A stretch of DNA of 64,000 nucleotides from Polyangiales bacterium (lineage in GTDB: Bacteria; Myxococcota_A; Polyangia; Polyangiales; Houyiibacteriaceae). The DNA lies in the NCBI GenBank assembly GCA_965227405.1, contig OZ245758.1:1705693-1769692 (forward strand). The letters run 5' to 3'. A model generated the notes under the pieces. It ran no database searches, was not told where the DNA came from, and worked only from the letters and a program-made list of their open reading frames with translations. The translations under genes were made by a program, and so were the position numbers. This document shows, in pieces, positions 3,783-39,933 of this stretch; the first letter of the stretch is position 1; every line of letters starts with the position of its first letter.

Positions 3783-5260
3783 CGCCAGTCCACGTCCCGG
3801 ACAAAGAGCCACGCAGAGCGCTCCGCGGCGATCACTGCTGCATCGAATGTGCTCACGCCACCGTGAATCAAAATGCTCTCATCATCGAGCTGCACCGCAT
3901 CGTGCAGAAGCATCAGTGGACCTGCAGGGTAGCTCACACTGTTCGCTTCGAGTGTCGCGGCTTGTGCCGTGCACGCACACGGGTCCACCGGAATGCGCAA
4001 GCCACTCCCTTCCCCAACCACCAGTAATTCATTCGGAAGCGCAAAACTGCGGTGGTAGGTGCGGGTCTCGGGCAGCGATGCGGTTCGACGCAGCACCCCA
4101 CCTTCCGGGCGGTCCAACCAACACCAAACGTCGTCCAGCTCGACTTCCTCTTCCACGCCCTCTTCCCGGATTACGCCGCCAACGACGTACACTGCACCCC
4201 CGCCTTGTTCGCAGGGCACGTACGTCGCGCTCATCTCTGCCCAGCCGAGCGGCGGTTCCGGATCGGTGTCCACATCAACGAAACACGGACTACCTTCGCA
4301 ATCGGTCAGGGCCAGTTCGAACAGCGGTCCGGGTTCTTCAAACAATCCACCAGCCAAGAACGCTCCACGTCCCAACGTCAGTGGTGCAACCGCTGGAAGA
4401 CTCCGAGCCACCCCTCCGGTCGCTTCGCGCGGCTCGAACGAGAACGTGTCGTCGTGCACTTCCATCCGCGAAAACGCGGGCATCAAGGGTGGCGCAGACG
4501 GCATCCCGCCAAAGAACGCCAACCCGTCCGCAAGAAGCACCGCGGCACTGGAACATCGCGGTGCAGCAAGCGGACGCGTGATCGGCGCAGCCTCGGGCGG
4601 CCACAACACTTCGATCGTTTCGTCGCATCCAAGAAAAGGATTTTGTCCACCGGCGATCAGGACTCGCCCATCGCGGAGCGTCAGTGTCGGCGCGAACAAA
4701 CGCTGCGTGGACAGTTCGCCGATCTCCACAAAGCGCCCACTGGTGATGTCGTAGCGCTCCACGACACGAACCGGGTTTGTCGGAACGAACGAAGCGTCCA
4801 ACATGGCAGCTCCACCCGCAATGATCGCTCCATCAACAGTCGCACTGATCGATTGAAGAAGGCGTGCGTGCACAGGCTGTCCACGCGTGGGCGCGATTTC
4901 GTCGGCACATCCGACTTGAACCGGAATCGTGTACGGCGGACCACGATGTTCGAAGTTCGCGCGTCCAACCGCACGCCGTCGCAACGCGCACACACCTTCA
5001 CGCGTCGACGCGGCAACCTCGAGTCGGTAGCGGCGCCCGTTCCGCAACACCCCGCCCTTCGCCAGATCGGCGAGCAGATCGCGGCCACGCGTTTCGACGA
5101 CCACCTCGTTACGCGCGTCGTACACCCGAAGGTCAACGTCGACGAAATCACGCTCCGGGTTGAGCCCCGCCGTCGGCACCATGCGAACCGAGATCACCTC
5201 CGGATCCGCACACGCGAGAAACAGGCAGAGCAGCACGCGCCACATGCGCGCAAGATACAC
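3779..5260 (-). CDS. Kelch-repeat beta-propeller lipoprotein
   Basis: Signal LLCLFLACA. Recurrent Kelch-like blades (GRVLIAGG, ILIHGG, YVVGG). 493 aa. Confidence 0.55.
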   Translation of the reverse strand: MYLARMWRVLLCLFLACADPEVISVRMVPTAGLNPERDFVDVDLRVYDARNEVVVETRGRDLLADLAKGGVLRNGRRYRLEVAASTREGVCALRRRAVGRANFEHRGPPYTIPVQVGCADEIAPTRGQPVHARLLQSISATVDGAIIAGGAAMLDASFVPTNPVRVVERYDITSGRFVEIGELSTQRLFAPTLTLRDGRVLIAGGQNPFLGCDETIEVLWPPEAAPITRPLAAPRCSSAAVLLADGLAFFGGMPSAPPLMPAFSRMEVHDDTFSFEPREATGGVARSLPAVAPLTLGRGAFLAGGLFEEPGPLFELALTDCEGSPCFVDVDTDPEPPLGWAEMSATYVPCEQGGGAVYVVGGVIREEGVEEEVELDDVWCWLDRPEGGVLRRTASLPETRTYHRSFALPNELLVVGEGSGLRIPVDPCACTAQAATLEANSVSYPAGPLMLLHDAVQLDDESILIHGGVSTFDAAVIAAERSAWLFVRDVDWR

Positions 5261-6032: not shown

Positions 6033-6210
6033 CGTTGCTGGGATAGTTCGGGCGCTTGAAGTTCCCGACGGGGGGCGGCGGTTCCTCTTCGGCTTCGTCG
6101 CGTTCTTCTTGCCGCGGTTCTTCGGGCTCTTGTTCAGGTTCTGCGGCGTGTGCAGATGCGCCCCATGAAGAGGCTGCGAGGGTCGCGATCATCAACCAGC
6201 GTGAGGACAT
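6025..6210 (-). CDS. small acidic secreted protein
   Basis: 61 aa. Signal peptide MIATLAASSWGASAHA followed by a Glu/Pro-rich tail. Its stop overlaps the ATG of the next gene (gATGggTGA). Confidence 0.3.
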   Translation of the reverse strand: MSSRWLMIATLAASSWGASAHAAEPEQEPEEPRQEERDEAEEEPPPPVGNFKRPNYPSNDG

Positions 6211-6352
6211 GCCTAGAACCTAGTGCGCATAATCCCCTGTGTTGTCAGGGTTTCGTAAAGGTCGGCCCGAACTGCAGCGTGTCTGCGCACAGCGCTTGCA
6301 ACGTCTCCTCAATTGGTCCGAGCGCTGACACAGCTCGGCACAAGGAGGAAAT

Positions 6353-7163
6353 GATGCGACGTATTCTCGGATGGCTTTTGATCGCGGCACTTGGTGCTTG
6401 CGGATCCGAGGTTCCTGACGCCGGTAACGAACTCGTTTTGAATGACGAAGCCGTCGGACTGGGATTCAACGCGATGGGCATCACCACCAGTCCAGAAGGA
6501 CAGGTCTTCTTGCTTGCCGGCAACCAAGTCTTTGAGCGCATCGAGGGCGAGTGGACGTCGCGGTGGAGCGCCGAAGCTGGCACACCGATTCTCCAAGACA
6601 TCGTCGCACTGGGTGAAGACCGCTTTGCATTGACCACACGCAACATGGGCTTTGAACTCTTCTTGGAGAGCGGCGAGCTGGTTCAGCACTTCTGCTACAT
6701 CCCCGGCGACGACATTCGCGAAGAGGATCCGCCGCAGACCCCGACGCCGACGGTCGAGATCAGCCGCAGTGTGGCCTACGCGGTTGAAGAGAACCTGATC
6801 GTGGCCAACCCGCAAACGATCACCGATGACGTTCGTCAGCGCCCGATGTTCTCCGAGGTCGCGATCTTTGATCGCACCAGTGGTGAGGAACTGCAGTTCC
6901 GCAACCTTCGTGACGCGGACTTCTCTGCGGGTGGACTCGCCGTTCTCGACTTCCCGACGCTTCTTGCGGGCGACGGTTCGATGCTGGTCGAGATCGACTT
7001 CAACACGGGTGACAAGCGTCGCTTCTTGGGTCTTGCTGGCCTCGGCATTGCGGAGATCGAGGGTCTGGCCATCGATCGTGAGGCAGGCGAATTGCTCGTT
7101 CTTGACGGGGTTTCGCAGCGTCTTGTGACGCTGAACCTGGACCAGGTGGAGGCTGCGCGATGA
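6353..7163 (+). CDS. lipoprotein, tandem paralog 1
   Basis: MMRRILGWLLIAALGACGSE lipobox. About 70% identical to the next gene across the full length. Confidence 0.7.
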
Positions 7164-7957
7164 AGCGTCTTTCCTTCCTGATTGTGCTGCTCGCTGCGTG
7201 TGGTTCGAACGTTCCGCAGGGTGGTGATGAACTGGTTCTCGATGATCGTGCAATGGAACTCGAAGCGCGTGTTCAGGGGATTACGAGCGCGAACGGCGTC
7301 GTCTACGCGTTGGGCGACAACAGCGTGTTTCGTCGCATCGAGGGTGAGTGGTCACGCGTTTGGACCGCGGAACCGGGCGTGCTCGAACTCTTGGATATTG
7401 TGGCGCTTGGCGATGAGCGTTTCGCTCTGACGACTCGCAATATGGGATTCGAGCTGGACTTGAGCACCGGTGCGTTGACCGAGCACTTTTGTTACGAGCC
7501 TGGCGACATTCCGCGTGACCCCGTTCCGCAGCAACCGCAACCGACGGTCGAGATCAGCCGGAGTGTGGCGTACGCCGCCGAAGAGAACCTGATCGTCGCG
7601 AACCCGCAGACGGTCACTGACGATGTTCTTCAGCGAGGCGTGTTCTCGGAGGTTGCGATCTTTGATCGTACGTCCGGTGAGGAGCTGCGATTCGTGAACT
7701 TGCGCGATGCGGAGTTCTCCGCGGGCGGATTGGTCGTCTTGGATTTCCCGACGTTGATCGCCGGAGAAGGCTCGACGCTCGTCGAGATCGACTTCGAGAC
7801 CGGCAACAAGCGCAACTTCCTCGGACTTGGTGGGCTGAACATCACCGCCATCGATGGACTCGCGATCGATCGTGAAGCCAACGAGCTGCTCGTCTTGGAT
7901 GCAGCCACCCAACGCTTGGTGACCCTGGACCTCGAGCAGGTTCTGCGCGCTCGCTGA
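7160..7957 (+). CDS. lipoprotein, tandem paralog 2
   Basis: MKRLSFLIVLLAACGSN lipobox. ATGA overlap with paralog 1. Shared blocks include DIVALG-ERFALTTRNMGFEL and VEISRSVAYA.EENLIVANPQT. Confidence 0.75.
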   Translation: MKRLSFLIVLLAACGSNVPQGGDELVLDDRAMELEARVQGITSANGVVYALGDNSVFRRIEGEWSRVWTAEPGVLELLDIVALGDERFALTTRNMGFELDLSTGALTEHFCYEPGDIPRDPVPQQPQPTVEISRSVAYAAEENLIVANPQTVTDDVLQRGVFSEVAIFDRTSGEELRFVNLRDAEFSAGGLVVLDFPTLIAGEGSTLVEIDFETGNKRNFLGLGGLNITAIDGLAIDREANELLVLDAATQRLVTLDLEQVLRAR

Positions 7958-8006
7958 TTTTTGGGCTCGTTCCGAAAAAGCGCCTTGGATTTGGCGGTTT
8001 TTCGAG

Positions 8007-8054
8007 CAGGTCCGGGTAAGTACTACACGCGTCCCCAGGATTTACCTGGGGACG
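8007..8054 (+). repeat. dispersed repeat copy B, extended into a perfect hairpin CGTCCCCAGG-ATTTA-CCTGGGGACG
   Basis: Core matches copies A, C and D. The 10-bp arms at 8030-8039 and 8045-8054 are exact reverse complements. Lies 35 bp upstream of the MBL gene start. Confidence 0.6.
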
Positions 8055-8088
8055 TAAACGCGTCGGGGCGACTGTAGACTACGCGTGA

Positions 8089-8988
8089 GTGCAACGCTTT
8101 CTGCCCGAACACGTTCCGCCCGAGCGTCTGCATCCGCAGGGCGCACCTGGGGACGGGCTGCGTATTCGTTGGCTCGGCACAGCCGGTCACGTGGTGCAAA
8201 GCGGGTCCACAACCGTTCTGCTCGATCCCTTTCTCTCCCGTCCCGGGTTACTCGCAACCGGCTTTGGACGACTGCGTCCCAATCCCGACGCGTGGTGGCG
8301 TTGGATCCCAAAGTCCGTCGACGCAATCGCCTGCGGGCACAGCCACTACGACCACATCATGGACGCGCCGGAGATCGCCAAGCGGACCGGCTGTTTGCTC
8401 ATGGGTTCGCGTACGACGCTTAGCTTTGCCCGCGCACATGGGGTTGCCGAGTCCCAACTTCGAGAAGTTCCCCCAAGCGGCGCCGTCCTTCGCGTCGGCG
8501 ACATCGACATACGTTTCGTCCCAAGCCTTCATGGACGCATCGCCGCAGGACGCGTACCTCTACCCGGCGAAGTACACAGTCCGCCCAAACTTCCAGCGCG
8601 TGTCTTCCACTACCGGATGGGCGGTGCGTTTGGCATCCACCTCACAACACCGTGGGGTCGCGTCTATCACAACGGCAGTGCTGACCTTGTGGACGCAGAG
8701 CTCCAAGGCCTGGGCGCGGAAGTCATGCTGGTCGGGCTGGCGGGTCGACAAGCGACGCCTTTCTACCTGCCCCGCATGCTTGGCATCTTGAAACCTCGCT
8801 TCGTGATCCCGACGCACCACGATGCCTTCTTTGCTCCTTTAGACGAAGGCGTGAAGCTGCTGCCGAGCATCGATCTGCCAGGCTTCCTGAAGCAGGTTGC
8901 CGCGATCGACCACCGAGTCGACGTTCGGCTCCCCACGTACGAGAGCATCTGTCGAATCAACGACCACGCGGTCTTTCACTCGCGCTAA
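8089..8988 (+). CDS. MBL-fold metallo-hydrolase
   Basis: HxHxDH-type motif ACGHSHYDH and a later HHD motif. GTG start at 8089. Confidence 0.7.
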   Translation: MQRFLPEHVPPERLHPQGAPGDGLRIRWLGTAGHVVQSGSTTVLLDPFLSRPGLLATGFGRLRPNPDAWWRWIPKSVDAIACGHSHYDHIMDAPEIAKRTGCLLMGSRTTLSFARAHGVAESQLREVPPSGAVLRVGDIDIRFVPSLHGRIAAGRVPLPGEVHSPPKLPARVFHYRMGGAFGIHLTTPWGRVYHNGSADLVDAELQGLGAEVMLVGLAGRQATPFYLPRMLGILKPRFVIPTHHDAFFAPLDEGVKLLPSIDLPGFLKQVAAIDHRVDVRLPTYESICRINDHAVFHSR

Positions 8989-9163: not shown

Positions 9164-9278
9164 AAATCCATGTTTTACGGATTTGAGACGGACCCGCACA
9201 CTGGCACAAAGCGGCATTCAAAAACTCAATGAATCAGGCTCAAACCAGTTGGAACGGGACGTGCTCAATGAGGACACC

Positions 9279-10400
9279 ATGATGCGCTCCACACAACTTC
9301 CGCTCCTTACTCTTTTGGCGTTGCCACTCATTGTCGGCGCCGACGAATGCGAATCCGATCCGCCCGACGAATGTATCTGCACCGCAGACTACGCTCCGGT
9401 CTGCGGTGTCGACGGCGAGACGTACAGCAACGCTTGCGAAGCCAGCTGCGCGATGGTCGAGATCGAACACGAGGGTGAGTGCACCCCTGATCCGATGCTC
9501 TGCTTTGACGACGGCGACTGCGCCGCGGGCAACTACTGCGACCACGACGAGTGCTTGAGTCCCTGCGAAGAAGGCGAAGTCTGCCCCGCTGTTTGCTACG
9601 GACAATGCGAACCCATTCCCCATCCCTGGTGCGAAACCGACGCGGACTGCGAAGCGGGCTTCGTCTGCAACGCAACGTGCTCCGCGCTTCCCTGTGAAGG
9701 CGAAGGCTGTGATGAGCTTCCGCCCAGCTGCACCGGCATCTGCGAGCCGGAACCGACATGCATCTGCCCCGATATTTGGGCTCCGGTCTGTGGCGCCGAT
9801 GGCGTGACCTACGGCAACGGCTGCGAAGCAGAGTGTGCGGGTGTCCCCGTCAACCACGAAGGCGAGTGTCGCCATGACTGCGTGTGCCCGGACATCTGGG
9901 CTCCGGTTTGCGGTGCAGACGGCAACACCTACGGCAACGGTTGCGAAGCCGAGTGCGCCGGTGTGCCCGTGGAATACGACGGTGAGTGCCGCCACGACTG
10001 CATCTGCCCCGATGTGTGGGCTCCTGTCTGCGGTGCGGACGGACACACCTACGGCAACGAATGTGAAGCGTCGTGCGTGGGCGTGAGCATCGAGCACGAA
10101 GGCGAGTGCGGCGGATGCGCATGCCCGCGCGTGTACGATCCGATTTGCGGATCGGACGGCAACACCTACAGCAACCCGTGTGAGGCACGCTGCGCCGGGG
10201 TCGAGATCGACTACCACGGCGAATGCCGGACCGATCCGCCTCCTCGCGAAACCTGTTACAGCGACGAGGACTGTCGTGGCGGCTACTGCGACCTCTCAGT
10301 CTGCCTCGATCCCTGTGAGCCTGGTGAGGCGTGCCCCGACGTGTGCGTAGGATTGTGCACCTACGATGGCGGCGAGCCTCCGCCCGTTCCAGAAGCATGA
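9279..10400 (+). CDS. secreted protein with five tandem Kazal-type inhibitor domains flanked by Cys-rich modules
   Basis: Signal MMRSTQLPLLTLLALPLIVGA. Five repeats of C-x6-PVCG-DG-TY-N-C-E-x-C-x9-C. The N- and C-terminal modules (CFDDGDCAAGNYCDHDEC... and CYSDEDCRGGYCDLSVC...) resemble each other. Confidence 0.7.
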   Translation: MMRSTQLPLLTLLALPLIVGADECESDPPDECICTADYAPVCGVDGETYSNACEASCAMVEIEHEGECTPDPMLCFDDGDCAAGNYCDHDECLSPCEEGEVCPAVCYGQCEPIPHPWCETDADCEAGFVCNATCSALPCEGEGCDELPPSCTGICEPEPTCICPDIWAPVCGADGVTYGNGCEAECAGVPVNHEGECRHDCVCPDIWAPVCGADGNTYGNGCEAECAGVPVEYDGECRHDCICPDVWAPVCGADGHTYGNECEASCVGVSIEHEGECGGCACPRVYDPICGSDGNTYSNPCEARCAGVEIDYHGECRTDPPPRETCYSDEDCRGGYCDLSVCLDPCEPGEACPDVCVGLCTYDGGEPPPVPEA

Positions 10401-10500: not shown

Positions 10501-13452
10501 GTGAGGATGGCGGGGCCCTTCGAGCGCGCACGAATCCGATGGATTCGAGAAGGCGCGAGCGATGAAGCGGACGAGTACGACGTTCGTACGATCAGCGTCC
10601 GCGCCATGTTCGTGAAAATGAGCAATCCGCCGAAAGCGGGTACACGTGGACGCGCGGAGTTGCTCGACCGCGATGGCAATCCCGTAATCGTGGGAACGAT
10701 TCGCGTTGTCTTCATGCGACCCGACTCGGGTGTCGGCGTGGAGTTCCTGGACACACGCACGATGCCTCCGCCCGCACCTGGCTCGCGGCGGTCTGCACGT
10801 CCAAGTGCGCCTCCCCAAATCGAGGCAGTCACGATTCCGAAAGCGCCTCGCACACCGACGGCGCGTCCCATCAAGAAACGAAAGAGCTCCGGTCCGCCTG
10901 CACCGACACCAACCTCGACGACTTCGATTCCGCCGCCTCCCAAGACACCCGTTCCTGAGAAGCCGCGTGCACCGAGTCCGATTCGACCCTCGCGACCACC
11001 CTCAAAGACTCCGGTGCCAACGCTTCCGCGTGCGCCCACTCCACTTGCGTCCACACCTCCGCCACGAAAACCAACGACTCGACCTCCGCCTCCAATGGAG
11101 GAACCCGAAGCCGTTGTGGCACGTGATGTTCGCGTCACGGGTGCGCCGCCCAAGCGATCACGTTCGCGAAAGCCCACCGCCGTGGGTGTGCCGCAGCCGG
11201 TCGCCACGCGTCAGCGTCGACATCGTTCGAAGAAGGCCACGATTGCAGGCATGGCTCCGGTCGTGGCGCCGCCGCCCAAGCCTTCTGACGCGCCATCCGA
11301 TTCGCAACCGGGCGGGCTGAAGCTCGATCTTGGCTCGCTCGAACCCACGGCACCGAGTGTTGAATCCGAGGCGCCCAAGCTCCAACTCGATGCGCCCAAG
11401 CTACAACTCGATGCACCCAAGCTTGATGTCCCCGCATTGAGCTTGGATGACGAAGCTCCGCTCCTGGAGCTCAACACCGACGCGCCTTTGGCACTCCCAA
11501 CGCCAACGGAAATCCCTCCCGCACCGGAGGACTTTGATCTTCCGATGCCAGACTTGGGCGACCTCTCGGAGCTGGAACCGCCGCCTTCGAAACCGCCGGT
11601 TGAAGCAGAGCCTGCGAAGGACGACATCCTCGCCAAACTCGCAGCGCCTGCGTCGCAACCTTTGGACCTGGGTGACGACGACCTTCCTGAACTCGAGATC
11701 GAAGCACCCAAACCCAAGACGCCCTCGATCATCATCGAGCCGCAGCTTCTGGAAGAAGCGCGACGGCTTACCGATCCACCGCCTCCTGAAGCGCCCAAAC
11801 AAGCGCGCCTCTCCACGCGCGTCAAAGCTCCAGGTGCGAGCGCGGACGTTGCGATCGGAATCGACCTCGGAACCAGCAACACATGTGTGTCGGCCGTGCT
11901 TGACGGTCGCCCCCAAGTCATTCCAACCAGGTGGGGCACAACCACGATTCCCTCGATGCTCTCGATCATCGATGGACGCGTCATGGTGGGACATGCGGCT
12001 GCGAAGCGTTCGATCATGAACCCGCAAAGCACCATCTACGGCAGCAAGCGTTTGCTCGGTCGCACGTACTCCCAAGATGTACACGAAGAGTTTCAGCCCT
12101 ACTTCGCGTACCCCTTGACCGAAACGGACGATCACCGCTTTGGTGCAGCGCTTCCCGACCGCACAGTGTCGTTTCAGGAAGTGGCCGAACGCCTGCTGCG
12201 CGAAGTGCGCGAAGTGGCTGAGCACCACCTCGGCAAATCCGTGGATCTCGCTGTGGTCACGGTGCCCGCGTACTTCGGCGAAACACAGCGCGACGCGGTA
12301 CGGACTGCAGCTCGTGACGCTGGGCTGACGGTTGGACGCATTGTCAACGAGCCCACAGCCGCTGCCGTGGCGTACGGCTATCAGCAGCAAGAGCCGGCGA
12401 CACTTGTGGTGTTCGACCTGGGCGGCGGCACATTCGATGTCTCGGTGTTGCGCGTGGAAGCACGCCGCTTTGAAGTACTGGCGACCGGGGGTGACGCGTT
12501 CCTCGGCGGCATCGACGTCGACGATATTCTCGCGCACTACCTGCTCGAAGAGTTCATGCGCACCGAACGCGTGAACTTCGAGCCCGACTCGCAACAACTC
12601 GCACGTCTTCGCGACGCAGCCGAAGAGTGCAAGCGCGGGCTTTCGATGCAGCACAAGTTTGCTGTGTACTTGCCTCACTTTGCCAACGTGGGTGGCAAGC
12701 CGCGACATCTGCAGGTTGCCGTGGAACAGTCGAAGCTCAACGAGCTGACCAACGATTTCTGCGACCGGTTGATCGACATCACGTCGACGGTGCTGGCAGA
12801 CCAAGGTCTGACCCCGCGCGATGTCGACGACGTATTGCTTGTGGGTGGTGGCACACGACTTCCGCGCGTTCAGGAACGCGTGGAGGAACTCTTCGAGAAG
12901 CGCGCAAGCAAGCGCATCAACCCCGACGAAGCTGTTGCACTCGGTGCGGCGCTGTTGAGCGACGAGAGCGGACTCGTCGACCTGATCGATGTTCTGCCGA
13001 TCTCGATCGGCTACAGCGGCGCGGGGCGAAAGTTCACCCGCTTGATCGCCAAGAACACCTCGGTGCCCGTCAGCCGTTCCTTCATCGTGCGCACCACCGG
13101 CGAGAACCAAGTGTCGTTTCCCATGCCGATTTTCCAAGGCGAGCGCATGGACGCGGCAGAAAACGAGTACTTGGGTACCGTGCGCGTCGAGAACATTCCG
13201 GAAGGGCCGTCGGGTTCGGAACTCGAGCTGACTCTCTCACTCGACGATCAGTGTTTGTTGCACGTCGCAGCACAACACGTCGCGTCAGGAACGGGTCTCG
13301 ATGTGACCCTGGAACGCGATCGGTCCGTGGAAGAAGTGATCCAATCCCTGGGCAAGTACGAAGGCGAACAGCAAGCCCCCACACCAAGGCGTCGTTCGGC
13401 GCTTGGGAACTTCTTCGCCAAGGTTCGCGGGATCTTCAAGAAGAAGAAATGA
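10501..13452 (+). CDS. Hsp70 (DnaK-family) chaperone paralog with N-terminal PilZ-like domain and long Pro-rich repetitive linker
   Basis: N-terminal RARIR...ISVRAMFV...GTIRVVF resembles PilZ. The 380-aa Pro/Ala/Lys linker carries LQLDAPK repeats. The C-terminal half reads IGIDLGTSNTCVSAV...VTVPAYFGETQRDAVRTAARDAGL...VFDLGGGTFDVSVL, the Hsp70 NBD motifs, followed by a substrate-binding domain. Confidence 0.8.
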   Translation: MRMAGPFERARIRWIREGASDEADEYDVRTISVRAMFVKMSNPPKAGTRGRAELLDRDGNPVIVGTIRVVFMRPDSGVGVEFLDTRTMPPPAPGSRRSARPSAPPQIEAVTIPKAPRTPTARPIKKRKSSGPPAPTPTSTTSIPPPPKTPVPEKPRAPSPIRPSRPPSKTPVPTLPRAPTPLASTPPPRKPTTRPPPPMEEPEAVVARDVRVTGAPPKRSRSRKPTAVGVPQPVATRQRRHRSKKATIAGMAPVVAPPPKPSDAPSDSQPGGLKLDLGSLEPTAPSVESEAPKLQLDAPKLQLDAPKLDVPALSLDDEAPLLELNTDAPLALPTPTEIPPAPEDFDLPMPDLGDLSELEPPPSKPPVEAEPAKDDILAKLAAPASQPLDLGDDDLPELEIEAPKPKTPSIIIEPQLLEEARRLTDPPPPEAPKQARLSTRVKAPGASADVAIGIDLGTSNTCVSAVLDGRPQVIPTRWGTTTIPSMLSIIDGRVMVGHAAAKRSIMNPQSTIYGSKRLLGRTYSQDVHEEFQPYFAYPLTETDDHRFGAALPDRTVSFQEVAERLLREVREVAEHHLGKSVDLAVVTVPAYFGETQRDAVRTAARDAGLTVGRIVNEPTAAAVAYGYQQQEPATLVVFDLGGGTFDVSVLRVEARRFEVLATGGDAFLGGIDVDDILAHYLLEEFMRTERVNFEPDSQQLARLRDAAEECKRGLSMQHKFAVYLPHFANVGGKPRHLQVAVEQSKLNELTNDFCDRLIDITSTVLADQGLTPRDVDDVLLVGGGTRLPRVQERVEELFEKRASKRINPDEAVALGAALLSDESGLVDLIDVLPISIGYSGAGRKFTRLIAKNTSVPVSRSFIVRTTGENQVSFPMPIFQGERMDAAENEYLGTVRVENIPEGPSGSELELTLSLDDQCLLHVAAQHVASGTGLDVTLERDRSVEEVIQSLGKYEGEQQAPTPRRRSALGNFFAKVRGIFKKKK

Positions 13453-15414: not shown

Positions 15415-15427
15415 ACGCGTCGTTCAG
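15411..15427. terminator. 17-nt palindrome CTGAACG-CGT-CGTTCAG shared by convergent stops
   Basis: Overlaps the pfkA stop and the stop of the minus-strand small ORF. No T-tract. Confidence 0.25.
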
Positions 15428-15609
15428 ATCTGGTCGTGCGTCCACTCGACGAGGCGTCGTGTGGTCTCGTCGCGGTCTTGATCGCGAAGCTTCGTGCGCA
15501 ACGTCGTGGTGACGAAGGCGTCGAGACTTGTGCCTTCACCTTCGGCTGCAGCGACGAGGCGGGCGAGAAGTTCGTGGTCGATGGCGAGTGAAAGCTTCTG
15601 CGTCTGCAT
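15424..15609 (-). CDS. small ribbon-helix-helix-like (antitoxin-like) protein
   Basis: 61 aa. LSLAIDHELLARL...GTSLDAFV resembles an RHH/CopG-type N-terminus. No cognate toxin ORF is evident. Confidence 0.35.
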   Translation of the reverse strand: MQTQKLSLAIDHELLARLVAAAEGEGTSLDAFVTTTLRTKLRDQDRDETTRRLVEWTHDQI

Positions 15610-15772
15610 GGGTCGGCCACGCTAACAGCCGAACCGAAAACGGACTTGCAAAGCGCGTGAGGTTTCCCATTGGCGCGACGCGTCATGAGCGAGCGTTCAG
15701 AATTCGAGCGTGCGTTGGTGCGTGTTGTGGACAGTTTTGCGAGCGCCCTAAACCGCTGAAACACAAGGGGAA

Positions 15773-16858
15773 TTGAGCGGTTCGCAAGCAAGCAAAGAGG
15801 CGTGTTTCGACGTACAATTGAACGTGGATTTTGTAGACGCTGTTCGTGCGCGACCAGGGATGTACGTCGGTGGAGCCGACGCGTTCGGTTTGCACCACAT
15901 GCTTTGGGAAGTTGTCGCGAACTCGCTGGACCAACACCTGATCGGTCACGCGAGTCACATCGACGTTCGAACGCACGACGACGGGAGCATCGAAGTTTGC
16001 GACGACGGTGCGGGCATTCCGATGACGCAGTTCGACAACGGCGATGGATTTCTCGAGCGCGCGATGACGACTTTTCGATCCGATGCAACTTTCGACGATC
16101 ACGCACCCCACTTGCACCTCACTGGAGGCGGAACGGGGTTGATGCCCATCTGCGCGCTTTCCGAATGGATCGACGTGGAGGTGTGCAGGAGCCAACGCCG
16201 TTTCCATCAGAGATTCGAGCGAGGACGCGTTGCTTCTGAACTCATCAAACTCGGGCCCTCACAGAGATCTGGCACAAGCGTTCGATTCAAACCCGACAAG
16301 TCCATTTTTGAGGCCGCGACCTGGGACGTCGATCGAATTCAGGAACGGCTCCACCAACTCTGCGCACTGATGCCGGGTCTCCGTGCATCGCTCAACGATC
16401 AGCTCTTCGGCCCGAGCGAACTTCGGGATTTGTTGGAGGGGGATGCATCTCTGGCTGGACCGTTCGAGATTGTGGCTTCGCACGATCTGATGACAGTTCG
16501 GCTCGTGATGTGTTGGTCCGATCGTAATGATCGCGCCGGCAACAGTGTCCGTAGTTTCGCGAACGCCATGCAGACGAAAGAGGGCTCGCACGTTCGTGGA
16601 TTCATGGAAGGATTAGCCGCTGCAATGGTTCGGTTGGGAGCGAGAAAGGGTTCGTGGGTGGATGCCTTCGAACATCTCTCTCGCGGAATGAGCGCCGTCA
16701 TCAGCGTCATGTTGATCGACCCAAGCTACGGCGCTCCAACACGTGATCGTCTTGTTCATCCTCGGGTGCGCGAGTTGATCAAGCGCACCGTTGCTGAACA
16801 ACTCCCTGCACAACTACCAGCGACGATGCGCGACGAACTGCTATCGCGTCTGCGCTGA
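15773..16858 (+). CDS. GyrB N-terminal paralog (GHKL ATPase + transducer domain only; no Toprim or C-terminal domain)
   Basis: VRARPGMYVGG...GLHHMLWEVVANSLD...DDGAGIP aligns to GyrB residues ~1-390. The protein ends where the GyrB 43-kDa fragment ends. Catalytic-loop residues are substituted (QTK becomes PTR, GLHGVG becomes GGTGLM). Confidence 0.7.
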   Translation: MSGSQASKEACFDVQLNVDFVDAVRARPGMYVGGADAFGLHHMLWEVVANSLDQHLIGHASHIDVRTHDDGSIEVCDDGAGIPMTQFDNGDGFLERAMTTFRSDATFDDHAPHLHLTGGGTGLMPICALSEWIDVEVCRSQRRFHQRFERGRVASELIKLGPSQRSGTSVRFKPDKSIFEAATWDVDRIQERLHQLCALMPGLRASLNDQLFGPSELRDLLEGDASLAGPFEIVASHDLMTVRLVMCWSDRNDRAGNSVRSFANAMQTKEGSHVRGFMEGLAAAMVRLGARKGSWVDAFEHLSRGMSAVISVMLIDPSYGAPTRDRLVHPRVRELIKRTVAEQLPAQLPATMRDELLSRLR

Positions 16859-16891
16859 CTTCGGGACGTGGCCAGCATTCCGCTTCGCTCT

Positions 16892-16927
16892 GGAAGCTCG
16901 GAGGCTCGGAAGCTCGGAAGCTCGGAC
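16892..16927 (+). repeat. 10-bp microsatellite (GAAGCTCGGA-like, ~3.5 units)
   Basis: GGAAGCTCGGAGGCTCGGAAGCTCGGAAGCTCGGA, intergenic. Confidence 0.6.
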
Positions 16928-17050: not shown

Positions 17051-18931
17051 CTACTCAGCAGGCGGCGGCTCCTCTTCGGTTCCACCCAGCGTAAACGAGA
17101 GATAACCACTCTCATCCGCAACAACCTCGGACACGCTCAGCGGGACACCCAGGTCCGGCAGCGTGATCGCCAGTCCGTCGAGCAGACCACTGATCTGACT
17201 GCCAACGATTCCTTTGAGCGCACCTTCGAGGCCACGCACCGACGCGGGTCCAAGCTCAACACGCGGCGACTCGAGCAACCACACGTGCGTGGTACTGGCT
17301 TCGGATACGTAGACCGGAACAACTTCGCCTTCGCCACCCTCGAGTGAGAGACCCATCTCGATGTGGGTTCCGAACACGAAGAGCGTCTCACCGCCCGCGC
17401 GAATGGTGAGCTTCAGTTCGCCAAGTCCAATGAACACATCCGGATCGACTTCGAGCTCGCTTCCTTCAACGGGTTGCGCCGCAGCCCAGCTGATCGGAGC
17501 AAGCTCTGCATCGATGTCGATCTCCAGAGGCGTGGCGTCGTCGAACGTACCGGGCGTGTAGAGCGTGCGAAGTTCGCGCGCGAGAATCGCGAGAGCACCA
17601 ACGTTGAGGAACGCGCTCGCAGACTCATCTGCATCCGCGGTCAGGTCGTCGATCTGCAGTGCACCACCACCCCAGGCACCGTGAAGCAGCTGACCGACAA
17701 GACCTGGATCCAAGTAGAGCGTGCCTGGTGCAGCTGCTGGAGCAGTGGGCGGCAAGTGCGGTGCACCCGGTGCCGTCGGACCACCACCGGGACCGGTCAC
17801 ACTCGCACCGACGGTGGCCATCAGCACGCCATCCACCGGCTCCAGTCCCGTCAGGCAGAGCGCGACTTCCATCGGCACATCGAAGAACGCCATCTCCTCG
17901 GTGACGTCGAGAATGTTGATGTCCATGTCGAGGAAAGGACCGATGAGGTCGTTCACCATGGGCTGAAGCTGACCCTCCATCTTGTCCGCGATGCTGCCCT
18001 CCACGAGCTCGCCGATGATCTCGCCGCCCAAGCCAATGATGGTACCGATCAACCCGCTGCCTCCGCTGAGACGCAAGTCCAGATCGAACGAGGTGAGTTC
18101 GACGGTAACGTCGTCGGCTTCGAAGCGCGTAACGCACTCACCGGGGGCGGGCGGCAATGCGCGAAGCGGCACGTGAACCTCAACCGTGATCTGATCCGCT
18201 TCGCTGTTCGGACGAACCGTGACCGTCTGGCCAATCGCGTTGCACTGTCCCTGGAAGCCGACCGCTACGTCGGGAAGAATGACCGTGAGATCCAGCCGAC
18301 CATCTTCGAGAACGGATGCAGAGATCTGAAGCTCACCGTGGCTGACCCGGTTCACGTAGAGCTGGCACATGTCGTCGTTGATCAACTCGCTTCCGGGCGG
18401 AAGCTCTGAAGCCAGGTCGATGTCACCCCCCAAAAGGTCACCGACACTCCCGGCGAGCCCGGAGAGAATCTCGTCGTTGAGCGCGATCACTGCCGCGCCG
18501 CTGTTGCGTTCACCTTCGGGCACGTAGGCGGAGCGAAGCAGTGAGCGGTGGCCACTGACCGAGTGACCTTCGATGTCGTGTGCGCGAAGCTCGACTAAGT
18601 TGAGACCCGGCTCGACGACAGCCGTGGCGGTGAAGCTTCCGTCGGCAGCCGTGGGCACGGTGGTGGGCGGGTCACCTGCTTCAACGCGATCCAAGCCCAA
18701 GCTGGCGCGGGCTTCACCCGTGATCGGAAGGTCCGTCGACTCGAGCCGACCGTAGGGGTCCGTGCTGGAGGTATCGAGAACCAGCGAGTACCCACCTGGC
18801 CCAAGCGGGTCCATCGGAACCACGGGAGGATCCTCGCCGGGCGGGTCTTCGCCGAAGCGGTCTGTCTCGACCACCGAACTCGCCGTTCCCACACATCCGA
18901 AGAGCCCCAGAAGCACCAACCATCGCGTCAT
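17051..18931 (-). CDS. secreted hypothetical protein (626 aa)
   Basis: MTRWLVLLGLFGCVG signal and lipobox. Gly/Asp/Leu-rich with no recognised domain. Confidence 0.55.
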   Translation of the reverse strand: MTRWLVLLGLFGCVGTASSVVETDRFGEDPPGEDPPVVPMDPLGPGGYSLVLDTSSTDPYGRLESTDLPITGEARASLGLDRVEAGDPPTTVPTAADGSFTATAVVEPGLNLVELRAHDIEGHSVSGHRSLLRSAYVPEGERNSGAAVIALNDEILSGLAGSVGDLLGGDIDLASELPPGSELINDDMCQLYVNRVSHGELQISASVLEDGRLDLTVILPDVAVGFQGQCNAIGQTVTVRPNSEADQITVEVHVPLRALPPAPGECVTRFEADDVTVELTSFDLDLRLSGGSGLIGTIIGLGGEIIGELVEGSIADKMEGQLQPMVNDLIGPFLDMDINILDVTEEMAFFDVPMEVALCLTGLEPVDGVLMATVGASVTGPGGGPTAPGAPHLPPTAPAAAPGTLYLDPGLVGQLLHGAWGGGALQIDDLTADADESASAFLNVGALAILARELRTLYTPGTFDDATPLEIDIDAELAPISWAAAQPVEGSELEVDPDVFIGLGELKLTIRAGGETLFVFGTHIEMGLSLEGGEGEVVPVYVSEASTTHVWLLESPRVELGPASVRGLEGALKGIVGSQISGLLDGLAITLPDLGVPLSVSEVVADESGYLSFTLGGTEEEPPPAE

Positions 18932-19087
18932 GCCTTGGATAGTGCAAACCCCGGACCAGCAAGGGATTTCGACCAATAGTCGTAATATCGGACCAACCCG
19001 CGAAGCCTGTTTCGACGTTTGTAGACCGCGGGGTCACAAGACCCGGTCCCCCCACCCCGTCCCATTCTGGCAGAGGTAATTTTGGGG

Positions 19088-19341: not shown

Positions 19342-20403
19342 TCAGCCTAGGTGGACTGGAAGACGACGTGAGCCCCAGGTTCCTGGGTTCGTGTGGAAGA
19401 CTCCCGCGACCCTTTCGCCGCACGCTGCGCACGCACCTTCGTTCAGGTTCCAACGTTGGATGGTGTAGCCGTCTCGGGCGATCACGGTCTCACCACACGA
19501 CGGGCAATACGTACTCTGCCCGCGCGGATCGAACACGTTCCCGGTGTAGACGTAACGCATCCCGGTTTCCATCGCGATGTCGCGCGCACGCACTAACGTC
19601 GACGCGGGTGTTCACGGCTTGTCTCGCATCCGAAAGTCCGGATGAAACGCACTGAAGTGCAGGGGCACATCTGGACCCAGTGTCTCGAACACCCACCGAT
19701 TCAGTTCACGTAACTCAGCTTCGCTGTCGTTCTCGCCAGGAATCAACAAGGTGGTGATCTCCACCCACACGTCGGTCTCGTGCACCAAGTACTCGAGTGT
19801 CTCCAACACGGGACGCAACTCTGCACTACACAGCTTCCGATAGAACCGTTCGGTAAACCCCTTCAGGTCCACGTTCGTAGCGTCGATCACCGAGAAAAGA
19901 TCACGACGCGCCGCAGGCGTAATGTACCCCGCGGTCACAGCCACGCTCTTGATGCCCTGCGCACGACACGCCACCGCAGTGTCCATGGCGTACTCGAGAA
20001 AGATCACAGGATCGTTGTAGGTGTACGCGACACTGGCACACCCCAAACGCTTGGCGGCTGCGGCAATCTGCGCCGGCTCTGCGCTGTCCATCAAGCGATC
20101 CATCTCGCGCGACTTCGAGATCGACCAGTTCTGACAAAACTTGCACGTGAGGTTGCACCCCGCGGTTCCAAAACTCAGCACGGGTGTCCCAGGAAGAAAG
20201 TGCGACAGAGGCTTCTTCTCGATCGGGTCCACGCAGTACCCACTCGACCTTCCATACGTCGTCAGAACCAGCTGATCGCCCTGCCTCGCACGGACAAAAC
20301 ACAGCCCACGCTGCCCCTCGTTGAGCGTGCAATGCCGCGGACACACGTCACAGCGAATGCGCCCTTCGTCCTCACTCCAATGTCGCGCAGGGTGCATTCG
20401 CAA
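19342..20403 (-). CDS. AmmeMemoRadiSam-system radical SAM enzyme, interrupted by an in-frame TGA at 19612-19614 (possible pseudogene, readthrough or sequencing error)
   Basis: The 263-aa part has CNLTCKFC (CxxxCxxC) and family-typical blocks. The 83-aa part continues in the same frame (MRARDIAMETGMRYVYTGNV...). The two ORFs are separated only by TGA in ...DKP-*-TPAST... Confidence 0.6.
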
Positions 20404-20419
20404 CCACTATAGTAAGGGC

Positions 20420-21193
20420 ATGCGCGTTCGTCCCGCAGCCATCGCCGGGCTCTTCTACAGCGACGACGTCGACACCCTGCGCGCATCGGTCCGCAAGTTC
20501 ATCGACGACGCACCCGAGAGTTCACTCCACCCCAAAGCGTTGGTCGCTCCACACGCAGGCACCATCTACTCCGGACCCACCGCCGGCTACGCATACAAGC
20601 TCATCCCCAACTCGGTGCAACGCGTCGTGTTGCTCGGACCCGCACACCGTGTCGCCGTTCGCGGCTTGGCTGTACCGAGTGTCGACGCGTTCGAAACACC
20701 GCTTGGAAACGTCACGCTCGACCGAGATGCGATCGCCGCCGCACTCCAACTGCCGCACGTGCATCAAGACGATGCTCCCCACGCCCAAGAACACTCGCTC
20801 GAGATTCACCTCCCCTTCTTGCAAGAACACTTGGGCAGCTTTCAACTCGTCCCCTTCGTGGTCGGCCAAGCAACGGCTGCAGAAGTTGCCGAAGTGCTCG
20901 CGCTCTTATGGGGTGGTGACGAAACACTGATCTTGATCAGCAGTGACCTCTCCCACTTTCACGACTACGAAACAGCACGGCGCATGGACGCGGAGACAAC
21001 GGCTGCGATCGAGTCATTGGACGCACACAAACTCCACTACGAATCCGCATGCGGTCGCGTTCCGCTTTCCGGGCTGCTCGCGGTGGCCAAAGAGCGCGAC
21101 ATGAAGGTGCACACTCTCGACGTCCGCAACTCGGGAGACACCGCGGGCACGCGCGAACGCGTGGTTGGCTACGGCGCATATGCTTTCGTCTGA
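20420..21193 (+). CDS. MEMO1-family protein (AmmeMemoRadiSam system protein B)
   Basis: AGLFYSDD...VAPHAGTIYSGPTAGYAY...HSLEIHLPFL...ISSDLSHFH are MEMO hallmark motifs. Confidence 0.8.
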   Translation: MRVRPAAIAGLFYSDDVDTLRASVRKFIDDAPESSLHPKALVAPHAGTIYSGPTAGYAYKLIPNSVQRVVLLGPAHRVAVRGLAVPSVDAFETPLGNVTLDRDAIAAALQLPHVHQDDAPHAQEHSLEIHLPFLQEHLGSFQLVPFVVGQATAAEVAEVLALLWGGDETLILISSDLSHFHDYETARRMDAETTAAIESLDAHKLHYESACGRVPLSGLLAVAKERDMKVHTLDVRNSGDTAGTRERVVGYGAYAFV

Positions 21194-32773: not shown

Positions 32774-33272
32774 CGACACGCCCACCCGCCCGGACGCGCA
32801 GATCGCCCAACCAAGTTTCGAGACACGCATGGATCCCGTCGCTTCGTACCGGCCGCACGATGGAGACATCTTGCACGCGACCACCAACGACACTCCACTC
32901 GACCACCACGCGTCCTCGAGCTGTGTGGTCTTCCTGAAGCACTTCGTTGTAGCAAGCCGTGAGTTCGTCCAAGCGGCCCTCGAGCGCAGCGCGGAGCGTG
33001 TTCTCAGGAATCCGTCCGCGTGAGTACGAAGGCGCCAAGAGATGGATCGTTCCGGTTGGTGCGGGCTGATCTCCGTGGAGTGCTTGCGCGAGGTCACCGG
33101 GAGTCTTCGTAGCGACGACCTCAGGACGGGGCGGAGGTGGAGGCGGAGGCTCAGGTGCGGGCACGAGCATCTCTTCCGCTTCGCGCGGTCTGTCACGCAG
33201 CTCGCGTTGAGGTTCCGGATCTCCGGAACATGCGAACGAGACAGCAATCACCACCAAGATCAATCGCAGCAT
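32736..33272 (-). CDS. lipoprotein with AgmX/PglI-like (TonB-C-like) C-terminal domain
   Basis: Lipobox VSFACSG. Pro-rich spacer. C-terminal block LDELTACYNEVL...GRVVVEWSVVGGRVQDVSIV...ACLETWL. Confidence 0.45.
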   Translation of the reverse strand: MLRLILVVIAVSFACSGDPEPQRELRDRPREAEEMLVPAPEPPPPPPPRPEVVATKTPGDLAQALHGDQPAPTGTIHLLAPSYSRGRIPENTLRAALEGRLDELTACYNEVLQEDHTARGRVVVEWSVVGGRVQDVSIVRPVRSDGIHACLETWLGDLRVRAGGRVVMTQPFLFHHSV

Positions 33273-39700: not shown

Positions 39701-39933
39701 AGTTTCTTGCGGCCAAGTGGGAGCAGCGAACGACGCGCAATCAACGCACCCCACGAGACCGCTTCCCATCCAAACGTGGCGCCTTCGCGAACAACCGTAC
39801 GCAACAAACGCGATGCTGCTTCACGTGTGGGCGCGGCAATCCAAACCGGCTCATCACGTCGGCGTTCGGAAAGCCACGAACGAGCAGTCGCGAGACGAAG
39901 CTCAGCAGCGTGACTGGCGATGAGCCGCGGCAT
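36736..39933 (-). CDS. addB: AddB-type subunit (degenerate helicase fold + C-terminal Fe-S PD-(D/E)XK nuclease)
   Basis: No Walker A. C-terminal CRWCDYKPVC (Cx2Cx5C) plus an upstream Cys are typical of the AddB iron-staple nuclease. Confidence 0.7.
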   Translation of the reverse strand: MPRLIASHAAELRLATARSWLSERRRDEPVWIAAPTREAASRLLRTVVREGATFGWEAVSWGALIARRSLLPLGRKKLSAASSLALDAVCARVVHRLGIADRLGRFTPIADQPGLPSALARTLHDVRLGELPAGALAEVGHDELEAIRRGFEEELALAQLADRADVLRAAMTGEARATVILDPVITSPLEAKLAATIAGDDGLITLPAGDERAWRLLSEVCAPRETVEEPLVDSLSRARMRLFEPIETTDPPDSTVTIVSAPGPSRECVEIARRCMRAARDGLRFDQIAVVLHTPGPYRPHLVEAFRRASIPLRFTRGTHAPDPSGRALLALLSCKHEGLSARAFGEYLSLGVVPELEEGAPPEAQDLWVVPDEEQMPIGLQLPEPVHDEAPADLDSNAIAGTLRVPRDWETLIVDAAVIGGRDRWERRLDVLHSRLEREHRTLDPDDPRRAGLIRRRAQLVSLRLFAMPILDALSELPEHARWGEWLTRLEAIATRAIRHPETVLRVLRELAPLGPVGPIDLPEVKRVLEPRLTQLLQRPTERVDGVFVATTAEIRGTRFEMVFVPGLAERLFPKRVLEDPLLLDASRLQLAVELQTRADAMDAEKLSLRLALGAAKQRVVLSWPDVDLERSRPRVPSFYALEVARAARGELPSFDALKSEAVEASPTHTGWPAPNDPLAAIDAAEFDLATLRNAFRDKQKGGMAYLLDANAHAKRALGFRARRWLSGKWTSADGLVLAPKDPRTQLLERHQPGARPFSATALQSFATCPYRFALYTLFRLETREVPEAIEQLNPLQRGSLIHDIQFETLTRARDDKMLPLDTLEAVARVRTLLDHVIDELAQEYAEELVPAIPRVWEESVADMRHDLHEWLSVLAAQDWEPDAFELAFGLTRGTRRDARSSPEPVQLHADMLLRGAIDLVERKGDVLRATDSKTGRVPRYVKAETQIGGGRVLQPLLYALALEQLYPDTTVEGGRLFYCTSRGDFAVRDVALDRSGRDQVNAYLELVAAHLQRGFFPAAPIEDGCRWCDYKPVCGPHEERRALLKHRRAPGPLQRLVQIRRQR

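Follow-up and report, generated by a model that had tools for sequence, protein, structure and literature searches.

The 64-kb stretch of DNA analysed here (contig OZ245758.1 of a Polyangiales bacterium, positions 1,705,693 to 1,769,692; hereafter the window) carries a gene whose product matches only the N-terminal, ATP-binding half of the DNA gyrase B subunit, GyrB. The gene is an intact stand-alone GyrB N-terminal paralog, neither a frameshift nor an assembly artefact. By sequence comparison, its product belongs to a monophyletic, undescribed family derived from the N-terminal 43-kDa (43K) half of GyrB. Judged from the alignments, the adenine/Mg pocket and the general base are strongly constrained in this family, and the lid that contacts the phosphates has been remodelled to a single conserved pattern. 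The reading that we prefer, with a probability of about 0.5, is that the protein acts as a gyrase-independent, probably dimeric, GHKL nucleotide switch. The gene is accessory and shows birth-and-death dynamics: ancient, divergent alleles or paralogs exist, and copies have been lost, duplicated in tandem and fused.

A stand-alone paralog of the GyrB N-terminal half

The open reading frame (ORF) begins with a TTG codon, and an AAGGGG Shine-Dalgarno sequence lies directly 5' of it at ~15765-15770. The gene and its two domains are as follows.

15773-16858, forward strand: stand-alone GyrB-like gene, 361 aa, GHKL ATPase plus transducer, without Toprim and without the C-terminal tail
15833-16417, forward strand: GHKL (Bergerat-fold) nucleotide-binding domain, residues ~21-215, by alignment to PDB GyrB/ParE N-terminal fragments
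16418-16822, forward strand: transducer (GyrB second) domain, residues ~216-350, by the Pfam DNA_gyraseB match at residues 231-348 and structural superposition

Pfam analysis of the protein returned HATPase_c and DNA_gyraseB only, the latter (PF00204) at 47 bits against a cutoff of 27. The gyrB profile PRK05644 was matched collinearly over positions 21 to 365 of 641, at 209 bits against a cutoff of 740, and TIGR01059 gave 191 bits against a cutoff of 882. The parE profiles scored lower than PRK05644, at 174 and 133 bits. In alignment the protein pairs with E. coli GyrB residues ~10 to 368, in agreement with an earlier interpretation made from the DNA alone (the sequence-only reading), which had called it collinear with GyrB. 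A sequence search of the PDB retrieved GyrB/ParE N-terminal fragments at 1e-43, and superposition of an AlphaFold2 (AF2) model revealed the GyrB/ParE 43K fold, transducer included.

Neither the Toprim domain (EGDSA and DxD motifs; PF01751) nor the GyrA-binding tail (PF00986) had a Pfam match in the protein. When six full-length GyrBs were used as tblastn queries, only their first 350 to 370 residues matched the window, at 15833-16816; no Toprim or tail similarity was detected in any frame 3' of the stop codon or elsewhere in the 64 kb. The next gene begins 190 bp beyond the stop codon and is convergent, on the opposite strand. An identical protein (P0001) is on record in an NCBI contig, and more than 115 relatives end at the same point after the transducer. 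The Pfam, profile and tblastn results bear out the earlier proposal of a stand-alone GyrB ATPase and transducer paralog that ends before Toprim. The same source had considered that Toprim might have been split off by a frameshift or an assembly error; this explanation fails, because no Toprim is present in the window and the relatives end alike.

That the gene is a broken gyrB or a neutrally drifting pseudogene is so improbable that we give the idea almost no weight. It is true that the end of the protein coincides with the domain boundary that precedes Toprim and that the window allele is off-consensus in places (Arg for H99, and its GGGTG loop). However, Toprim and tail are missing from the entire 64 kb, the neighbouring gene 190 bp on runs in the opposite direction, and the end point is common to more than 115 independent relatives, with a ratio of nonsynonymous to synonymous substitution rates (dN/dS, or omega) well below 1 and the family motifs intact in the window copy. 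Lacking Toprim and the GyrA-binding tail, the protein can neither serve as the cell's GyrB nor cleave DNA or become part of gyrase. Since gyrase is essential, a canonical gyrB is expected elsewhere in the genome.

A family of short GyrB-like proteins with a common signature

An exhaustive profile search of 1.84 billion representatives recovered at least 115 family representatives at 50% identity, which range in length from 320 to 500 aa and all lack Toprim. In this search the short family proteins scored 300 to 477 bits, and canonical GyrBs began at ~330 bits. The family signature comprises the motif E-[VLI]-[VLI]-[AGS]-N, a T-x-D-x-H-x-P-H-x-H lid, a P-T-[RK] loop and a length of ~320-500 aa. 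Motif classification found the strict His-lid motif in 96 sequences and close variants in ~24 more, and none of the sequences so classified has Toprim or the canonical lid. The window protein carries the full signature (361 aa, EVVAN, TFDDHAPHLH, PTR) and is positioned inside the family clade. In a midpoint-rooted neighbor-joining tree, which is a distance tree without bootstrap, the 115 family tips fall together in a single clade, separate from the 40 canonical GyrBs; the nearest neighbours of the window protein are P0003 and P0002.

Members come from metagenome-assembled genomes (MAGs) of Polyangiales, Polyangiaceae, Kofleriaceae, Lysobacteraceae and Alphaproteobacteria, from Sorangium sp. 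So ce726 and from TARA marine metagenomes. In public records they are labelled only as "DNA gyrase subunit B," as "ATP-binding protein" or as "hypothetical protein," and the first of these names can mislead gyrB-based taxonomy and screens for resistance by target duplication. A profile search of genome contigs was swamped by canonical gyrB, and five of the 80 loci listed were family members, the window's own genome not being among those recovered; one of the two patterns used in this search also matches the GyrB of Collinsella and Atopobium. Six of 120 pattern matches in metagenome contigs were genuine members, as were none of 22 in viral contigs.

The literature on PDB entry 3CWV, on DUF7919 and on truncated, orphan or paralogous GyrB yielded no description of the family. 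What is already known is the fold and its ancestry, the existence of natural short GyrB paralogs (3CWV) and orphan gyrB genes in mycobacteria. What appears to be new is a large monophyletic family of stand-alone GyrB 43K proteins (GyrB43) with a His-rich lid and a P-T-(R/K) loop, subject to birth and death at a conserved locus.

The Myxococcus xanthus protein in 3CWV, a structural-genomics entry entitled "DNA gyrase, B subunit, truncated," is likewise short (369 aa) and myxobacterial. It scores 170 bits against the family profile, compared with 320 bits for E. coli GyrB, and only profile positions 114 to 356 align well. Against the single window protein it gave E = 4.7e-21, compared with 1e-43 for canonical GyrBs. 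From these scores 3CWV appears to represent a separate, more divergent truncated lineage; no paper citing it was found. An orphan gyrB is known from Mycobacterium smegmatis (Jain and Nagaraja 2002, cited in PMC2691988). PMC2691988 describes an extra copy away from gyrA, in a genome that has the canonical gyrBA pair too, and speculates that this copy can substitute for GyrB, which treats it as a functional subunit. Unlike that copy, the window protein has no catalytic C-terminal half and cannot substitute.

Several members depart from the single-module architecture. In a Polyangiales MAG (SGMAG-21, JBGCFM010000067.1; locus L011, ~6070-8158), two truncated GyrB-like genes stand in tandem. In the upstream one, Glu42 and the His lid have been lost; the downstream one bears the full signature. 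The two copies are near-identical in their middle and C-terminal parts, which points to recent duplication or gene conversion. P0079 (786 aa, Alphaproteobacteria MAG, MCB9742378.1) is a fusion of a degenerate module with a His-lid module. P0045 (747 aa) consists of two fused GyrB43-like modules with canonical GLHG(V/I)G lids and with SPTK and SMTD instead of QTK; on these motifs it could represent yet another truncated lineage, the third.

In P0113, P0129, P0160 and P0167 (472 to 496 aa), which form a subgroup, a DUF7919 domain (PF25535) with an H-x-C-x-x-C motif is found at the N-terminus. DUF7919 otherwise occurs as a stand-alone hypothetical protein of 135 to 185 aa in varied, uninformative neighbourhoods. 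One stand-alone copy (locus L088) is situated in a mobile or defence-like island with a KAP NTPase, DUF4062 and a D5-type primase.

The nucleotide pocket is conserved and the lid is rebuilt

Residues were counted in 116 family members and 39 canonical GyrBs and are given in E. coli GyrB numbering. In the window protein, E42 corresponds to E46, N46 to N50, D49 to D53, the adenine Asp D73 to D77, G77 to G81 and T165 to T168, and the phosphate-loop glycines G117 and G119 correspond to G120 and G122. Three segments of the gene are concerned (window-protein numbering).

15908-15922, forward strand: motif I, E46-V-V-A49-N50; general-base Glu and Mg-ligand Asn kept, with a family-specific Asp45-to-Ala change (E. 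coli numbering) between them
16088-16138, forward strand: rebuilt ATP lid, T106-F-D108-D-H110-A-P112-H113-L-H115 ... G120-T-G122; a His-rich signature replacing K103, N107, Y109, K110 and S112 of E. coli GyrB
16736-16744, forward strand: P322-T323-R324 in the position of the QTK loop; Q335 is changed to Pro and K337 stays basic

The Bergerat motifs (ExxxN, DxGxG, GxxGxG and Thr165) are all present in the window protein, and G79 also aligns. Among the 116 members, E42 is kept in 111, N46 in 114, D49 in 113, D73 and G77 in all, T165 in 112, G117 in 110 and G119 in 115. H99 (98 members), D105 (108) and T336 (99) are retained as well, and the residue at K337 is basic in 107 (Arg in 74, Lys in 33).

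The lid is exchanged just as consistently: K103 is replaced by Thr in 99 members, N107 by His in 104, Y109 by Pro in 101, K110 by His in 110 and S112 by His in 109. Further exchanges affect D45 (Ala, Gly or Ser in 114), G113 (Leu, Val or Ile in 104) and Q335 (Pro in 107), and G102 is Pro or Ala family-wide. In canonical GyrBs, D45, K103, Y109, H116, Q335 and K337 were found in 39 of 39 and a Lys at K110 in 29 of 39. The window protein has neither the canonical lid (LHAGGKF ...) nor the QTK loop (K103 to Thr, Y109 to Pro, K110 to His, H116 to Gly, Q335 to Pro). In a set of 19 sequences, the residues D108, H110, H113, H115 and G122 (window-protein numbering) are invariant.

These data agree with the sequence-only reading in that the lid is replaced (it reads FRSDATFDDHAPHLHLTGGGTGLM in the window protein) and QTK has become PTR. 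Its description of the catalytic residues as degenerate does not hold, since the general base and the Mg and adenine ligands are kept and the changed residues form a conserved family signature. Its opinion that the protein is unlikely to hydrolyse ATP is likewise not borne out as it stands, in view of the strong conservation, in 116 relatives, of the general base, the Mg/adenine ligands and a basic residue at K337. A retained general base and a basic residue that senses the gamma-phosphate are expected of a nucleotide-using protein, and a drug sponge would have no obvious need of them.

Omega was 0.10 to 0.33 for pairs of family members and ~0.08 for the neighbouring pfkA and secreted-protein genes; because dS is near saturation, these values are rough. 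As estimated from these ratios, the gene is under purifying selection and is selectively maintained. By the residue counts, nucleotide binding is likely retained.

The closest known structures are the 43-kDa fragments of GyrB and ParE (E. coli GyrB43, PDB 1EI1 and 4WUB; Staphylococcus aureus ParE43, 4URL), which have the same Bergerat ligands E42, N46, D73, G77, T165, G117 and G119. The GyrB43 fragment is natively part of a subunit of 640 to 800 aa, whereas the window protein is the whole polypeptide. The family further differs from GyrB43 in its T..D.H.PH.H lid, its P-T-(R/K) loop and the change of D45 to Ala, Gly or Ser.

The composition of the lid raises the question of whether the nucleotide pocket is vestigial, with the Asp/His cluster forming a metal site (a sensor or chaperone) or binding a non-nucleotide ligand. 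The D-x-H-x-x-H-x-H spacing, which is (near-)invariant in the family and which in our estimation resembles short metal-binding motifs, would fit such a role, as would the loss of the Lys and Tyr phosphate contacts. Nonetheless, E42, N46, D73, T165, G117 and G119 are conserved as well as the histidines, which argues that the nucleotide pocket is still in use; metal-homeostasis genes do not recur in the neighbourhoods, and the geometry of the His cluster is beyond the confidence of the AF2 model. We hold a purely metal- or ligand-binding function to be distinctly unlikely.

A gyrase-independent nucleotide switch is the preferred reading

As a GHKL switch, the protein would bind an Mg-adenine nucleotide in the conserved Bergerat pocket (E46, N50, D77, G81, T168, G120 and G122). 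The His-rich lid (D108, H110, H113 and H115) would close over the phosphates, directly or via a bound metal ion, and the transducer-loop Arg/Lys (R324) would sense the gamma-phosphate. The protein would work as a homo- or heterodimer. Binding of an Mg-adenine nucleotide is suggested because E42, N46, D73, T165, G117 and G119 are among the most conserved residues of the family. Dimer action is suggested because fused and tandem copies occur, as does a relic next to an intact gene in the same-species locus L081 treated below, and because some members keep the canonical N-terminal strap, SYxADSIQVLEGLEAVR, with the equivalents of Tyr5 and Ile10. Independence from gyrase is suggested because neither Toprim nor the tail is present. 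The Asp/His cluster would stand in for the lost Lys and Tyr phosphate contacts. The N-terminal domain of MutL, MORC and Topo VI-B have the same general architecture, a GHKL domain followed by an S5-like second domain, and act as ATP-driven dimerisation switches. Among the three roles offered by the sequence-only reading, that of a gyrase-independent GHKL protein fits best.

A number of observations weigh against a nucleotide switch. The phosphate contacts K103, Y109, K110, H116 and Q335 are gone, and on this account ATP affinity or hydrolysis may have been lost. The lid and the P-T-R loop are low-confidence regions of the AF2 model, which therefore gives no guide to the geometry of the His cluster; low confidence at the lid is what one would expect of a mobile element. 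In many members no more than 12 residues precede the RPGMY motif, which leaves the N-terminus too short to form the canonical strap for dimerisation. Of the four alleles described below, that of the window diverges most, and it departs from the family consensus at H99, where it has Arg. Lastly, variable presence together with ancient alleles is more typical of conflict genes (immunity, defence), which favours a decoy.

The features that suggest dimerisation also bear on whether the protein regulates gyrase or topoisomerase IV, pairing with the GyrB or ParE ATPase domain at the N-gate to give a half-dead, dominant-negative clamp with reduced supercoiling activity. Its high structural similarity to the GyrB 43K fragment, transducer included, the canonical strap (Tyr5 and Ile10 equivalents) in a subset of members and the basic residue kept at K337 are all compatible with this. 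On the other hand, conservation is poorest, or remodelling greatest, in the two elements of the dimer interface (N-terminal strap and ATP lid), the gene is dispensable in congeners, and alleles that are 51 to 67% identical in near-identical backgrounds are hard to square with a single conserved GyrB partner. We consider such a regulator very unlikely; of the roles suggested from the sequence alone, the dominant-negative regulator has the least in its favour, as the dimerisation strap and lid are not conserved.

Divergent alleles in a conserved locus

The order of genes in this part of the window is a Kazal-repeat protein, a Pro-rich Hsp70, an aldo-keto reductase, PfkA, a ribbon-helix-helix (RHH) protein, the GyrB-like protein, a secreted 641-aa protein and AmmeMemoRadiSam genes. 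A contig of the same species (Logan SRR23272290; locus L081) encodes PfkA, aldo-keto reductase and secreted protein that are 100%, 97% and 99.4% identical to those of the window. Its GyrB-like protein, P0002, is only ~54% identical to the window's, between flanks that are 97 to 98% identical at the nucleotide (nt) level. The proportion of synonymous differences (pS) between the two was 0.62 over the whole gene (347 aligned codons), compared with 2 to 3% nt divergence in the flanks. Two segments of the window differ.

15853-16720, forward strand: allelic replacement block, divergent from L081 by identities in 60-nt windows, with both flanks at 97-98% nt identity
16869-17049, no strand: intergenic segment absent from L081, with the 8-bp tandem repeat GCTCGGAA in 4.9 copies at 16887-16926

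Directly upstream of the intact P0002 gene, L081 also contains a decayed relic of the window-type gene (4464-4640, ~15773-15900 of the window). The first 28 codons of the relic are 97% identical at the nt level and are followed by frame-shifted pieces of the 3' end ("GGTDTFGLHH," "TRDRLVHPRV," "RDELLRRL*"). The relic suggests either an ancestral tandem pair or an imprecise allele replacement.

Congeners whose PfkA is 86% identical add a third GyrB-like allele (locus L093) and a fourth (L094). The four alleles are 51 to 67% identical to one another, between flanking genes that are 86 to 100% identical. No localised hypervariable patch was found among the four; the differences are spread through the whole protein. 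Three further loci (L090, L091 and L092; Logan SRR31366771, SRR31366775 and SRR31366773) have the same synteny (Kazal, Hsp70, aldo-keto reductase, PfkA, RHH, secreted protein) without the GyrB-like gene, and in these the secreted-protein gene follows RHH after 56 bp. The RHH protein of L094, where the GyrB-like gene is present, is 92% identical to that of L090, where it is absent; presence and absence therefore vary among close relatives. The near-saturated synonymous differences indicate ancient allelic or paralogous lineages that were sorted by recombination or differential loss, not recent rapid divergence.

A target-mimic decoy as an alternative

The GyrB ATPase domain is a major antibiotic target and recently also an interbacterial-toxin target. 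The dynamics of the locus are reminiscent of a target-mimic decoy or immunity protein, in which the GyrB-ATPase-like shape and pocket would capture ATP-competitive natural products or interbacterial protein toxins directed at the ATP lid and spare the real GyrB and ParE, the decoy's own lid residues being altered so that cleavage or modification fails. The conflict-like turnover (alleles at 51 to 67% versus flanks at 86 to 100%, absence from L090-L092, the relic in L081, the tandem in L011) speaks for such a role, as does the near-saturation of synonymous differences between same-species alleles, which implies that divergent alleles are maintained or exchanged. Allele differences that are spread along the protein, and not concentrated on one surface patch, speak against it.

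The residue pattern cuts both ways. The protease Cpe1 recognises LHAGGKF and cuts after G101-G102, with G113-G114 as a second GG motif (PMC12136450). The family-wide changes of G102 to Pro or Ala, K103 to Thr and G113 to Leu, Val or Ile coincide with these Cpe1 sites, but they also largely destroy the recognition motif, so that binding of the toxin is not assured. Tyr109, which we take to be the site of AMPylation by FicT, is Pro in 101 of 116 members. The adenine-pocket residues used by ATP-competitive inhibitors (D73, N46, T165 and G77) are near-invariant; the residues that contact aminocoumarins are not conserved, R76 being Pro, Arg or Ala, P79 variable and R136 kept in 73 of 116. The high conservation of the general base E42 and of a basic residue at K337 would have no obvious purpose in a decoy.

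The hosts, Polyangia and Lysobacteraceae, are predatory soil bacteria rich in antibiotics, and a "Myxococcales bacterium" has homologues of Cpe1. However, neither in the window nor at ~12 other loci do genes for toxins, secretion systems or biosynthesis adjoin the family member, and PADLOC-DB 2.0 gave no match for the GyrB-like protein, the RHH protein, the 641-aa neighbour or a DUF7919 fusion.

The decoy idea is modelled on producers of aminocoumarins, in which gyrB(R) and parY(R), together with sequestration-type proteins, protect gyrase from inhibitors of the ATPase site. Both of these genes lie in the biosynthetic cluster and specify active subunits of full length. By comparison, the window protein is truncated, R76, P79 and R136 are not conserved in its family, and no polyketide synthase, nonribosomal peptide synthetase or other biosynthetic cluster was found in the 64-kb window or at the other family loci examined. 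The decoy role raised by the sequence-only reading is favoured by the conflict-like turnover and disfavoured by the lack of a nearby biosynthetic cluster and the variability of R76, P79 and R136. Overall we regard a decoy as possible but doubtful. It seems unlikely to us that the family would be, more specifically, an uncleavable and unmodifiable GyrB-ATPase decoy (GG motifs, Lys103 and Tyr109 removed) that keeps lid-directed interbacterial toxins (Cpe1-type proteases, FicT-type AMPylases) or ATP-site antibiotics from the essential gyrase and topoisomerase IV by titration, turns over by birth and death like orphan immunity genes and confers "immunity by target mimicry" without a linked cognate toxin gene.

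If the preferred reading of a nucleotide switch is true, the family would represent a GHKL switch of a new type that holds its nucleotide in an unusual manner, by histidines or a metal; if the decoy is true, it would be a new kind of gyrase protection. Either outcome is relevant to topoisomerase enzymology and to the mining of resistance determinants. The family is no categorical surprise, but it is well defined, relates to an important drug and toxin target and has an unexplained population-genetic pattern.

Neighbouring genes and the RHH gene

Three features lie upstream of the GyrB-like gene.

15424-15609, reverse strand: RHH-like gene, 61 aa, with weak YlcI/YnfO and HicB similarity
15610-15772, no strand: divergent intergenic region between the RHH and GyrB-like genes, 163 bp, holding the AAGGGG Shine-Dalgarno sequence
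15418-15688, no strand: RHH-carrying inverted segment, ~270 bp, inverted in the window and L081 relative to the congeners L090 and L093

The profile matches of the RHH protein are below the respective cutoffs (NCBIfam YlcI_YnfO_N, E = 3.7e-5; Pfam HicB, E = 0.005). The sequence-only reading had this gene converging on the GyrB-like gene. In fact it is located upstream, head-to-head and divergent across the 163-bp spacer, and it converges on pfkA; the gene that converges on the GyrB-like gene is that of the 641-aa secreted protein (17051-18976, reverse strand). A consensus scan found no sigma-70-like promoter in 15610-15772, promoter and terminator scans gave nothing convincing near the GyrB-like gene, and Rfam had no match in the window.

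RHH orthologues in L090, L093 and L094 are 69 to 72% identical to the RHH protein of the window at the amino acid level (69 to 92% across loci), with omega of 0.08 to 0.18. The RHH gene is also present in L090-L092, where the GyrB-like gene is absent, and was not found beside family members in other lineages. It is thus a real, conserved neighbour and not an obligate partner. The two genes do not behave as the co-inherited, co-oriented operon of a toxin-antitoxin pair: RHH persists alone in L090-L092, the ~270-bp inversion makes the two divergent in the window, and RHH is lacking beside family members of other lineages. Reverse-strand blastn matches (L090 7157-7424 and L093 1596-1868 to window 15685-15418) delimit the inverted segment. 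In L090 and L093, RHH is co-directional with pfkA and likewise with the GyrB-like gene; no inverted repeats flanking the segment were found.

PfkA of the window is 72% identical to that of Myxococcota MAGs, 70% to that of a Polyangiales MAG, 65 to 68% to that of Sandaracinaceae MAGs and 67% to that of Sandaracinus amylolyticus, which places the organism, approximately, within the Myxococcota. The neighbours of family members differ from lineage to lineage: a glyoxalase and a TonB receptor; a cyclase and an ABC transporter; a CDP-alcohol transferase and a radical SAM enzyme; Pnkp-Hen1; a hybrid histidine kinase; a glutathione S-transferase (GST); or an alpha/beta-hydrolase. Across nine loci only the GyrB-like gene was common, with the exception of one same-lineage pair. 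At the Pnkp locus (L184, 1823-5757, metagenome contig Ga0209812_10000080), Pnkp, with its PNKP ligase, kinase and phosphatase domains by Pfam, is directly upstream of the family member, and it is preceded by what we presume from its N-terminal sequence to be Hen1.

An AmmeMemoRadiSam set (radical SAM, Memo and AMMECR1) is found two genes downstream in the window (19612-21193) and in L093 (5169-7563). A radical SAM gene also lies 3' of the family member in a Polyangiaceae MAG (locus L086). These recurrences may be a remnant of synteny and not the sign of a functional link.

The large ORFs of the window encode AddAB-like, PPDK-like (pyruvate, phosphate dikinase), FIST, DUF1552 and Kazal proteins. 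An AddA/AddB-type helicase-nuclease pair (UvrD helicase and PD-(D/E)XK nuclease) is encoded at 33272-39933 on the reverse strand. Four ORFs are without a Pfam match at E <= 1e-5: 47161-52422 (forward strand, 1,753 aa), 40052-42154 (reverse, 700 aa), 58096-59973 (forward, 625 aa) and the 641-aa ORF at 17051-18976 (reverse). The last of these has a signal-peptide-like start and is 85% conserved in congeners. The ORF at 9183-10400 (forward strand) encodes a secreted protein with four Kazal-type protease-inhibitor repeats, which are unusual in bacteria. At 10501-13452 (forward strand) is the gene for a 983-aa Hsp70-family protein that is conserved in L081 and L090 and has ~430 extra N-terminal residues. 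The extension begins with a small globular-looking part, possibly a PilZ-like domain, followed by a very long Pro/Ala/Ser/Thr-rich low-complexity linker.

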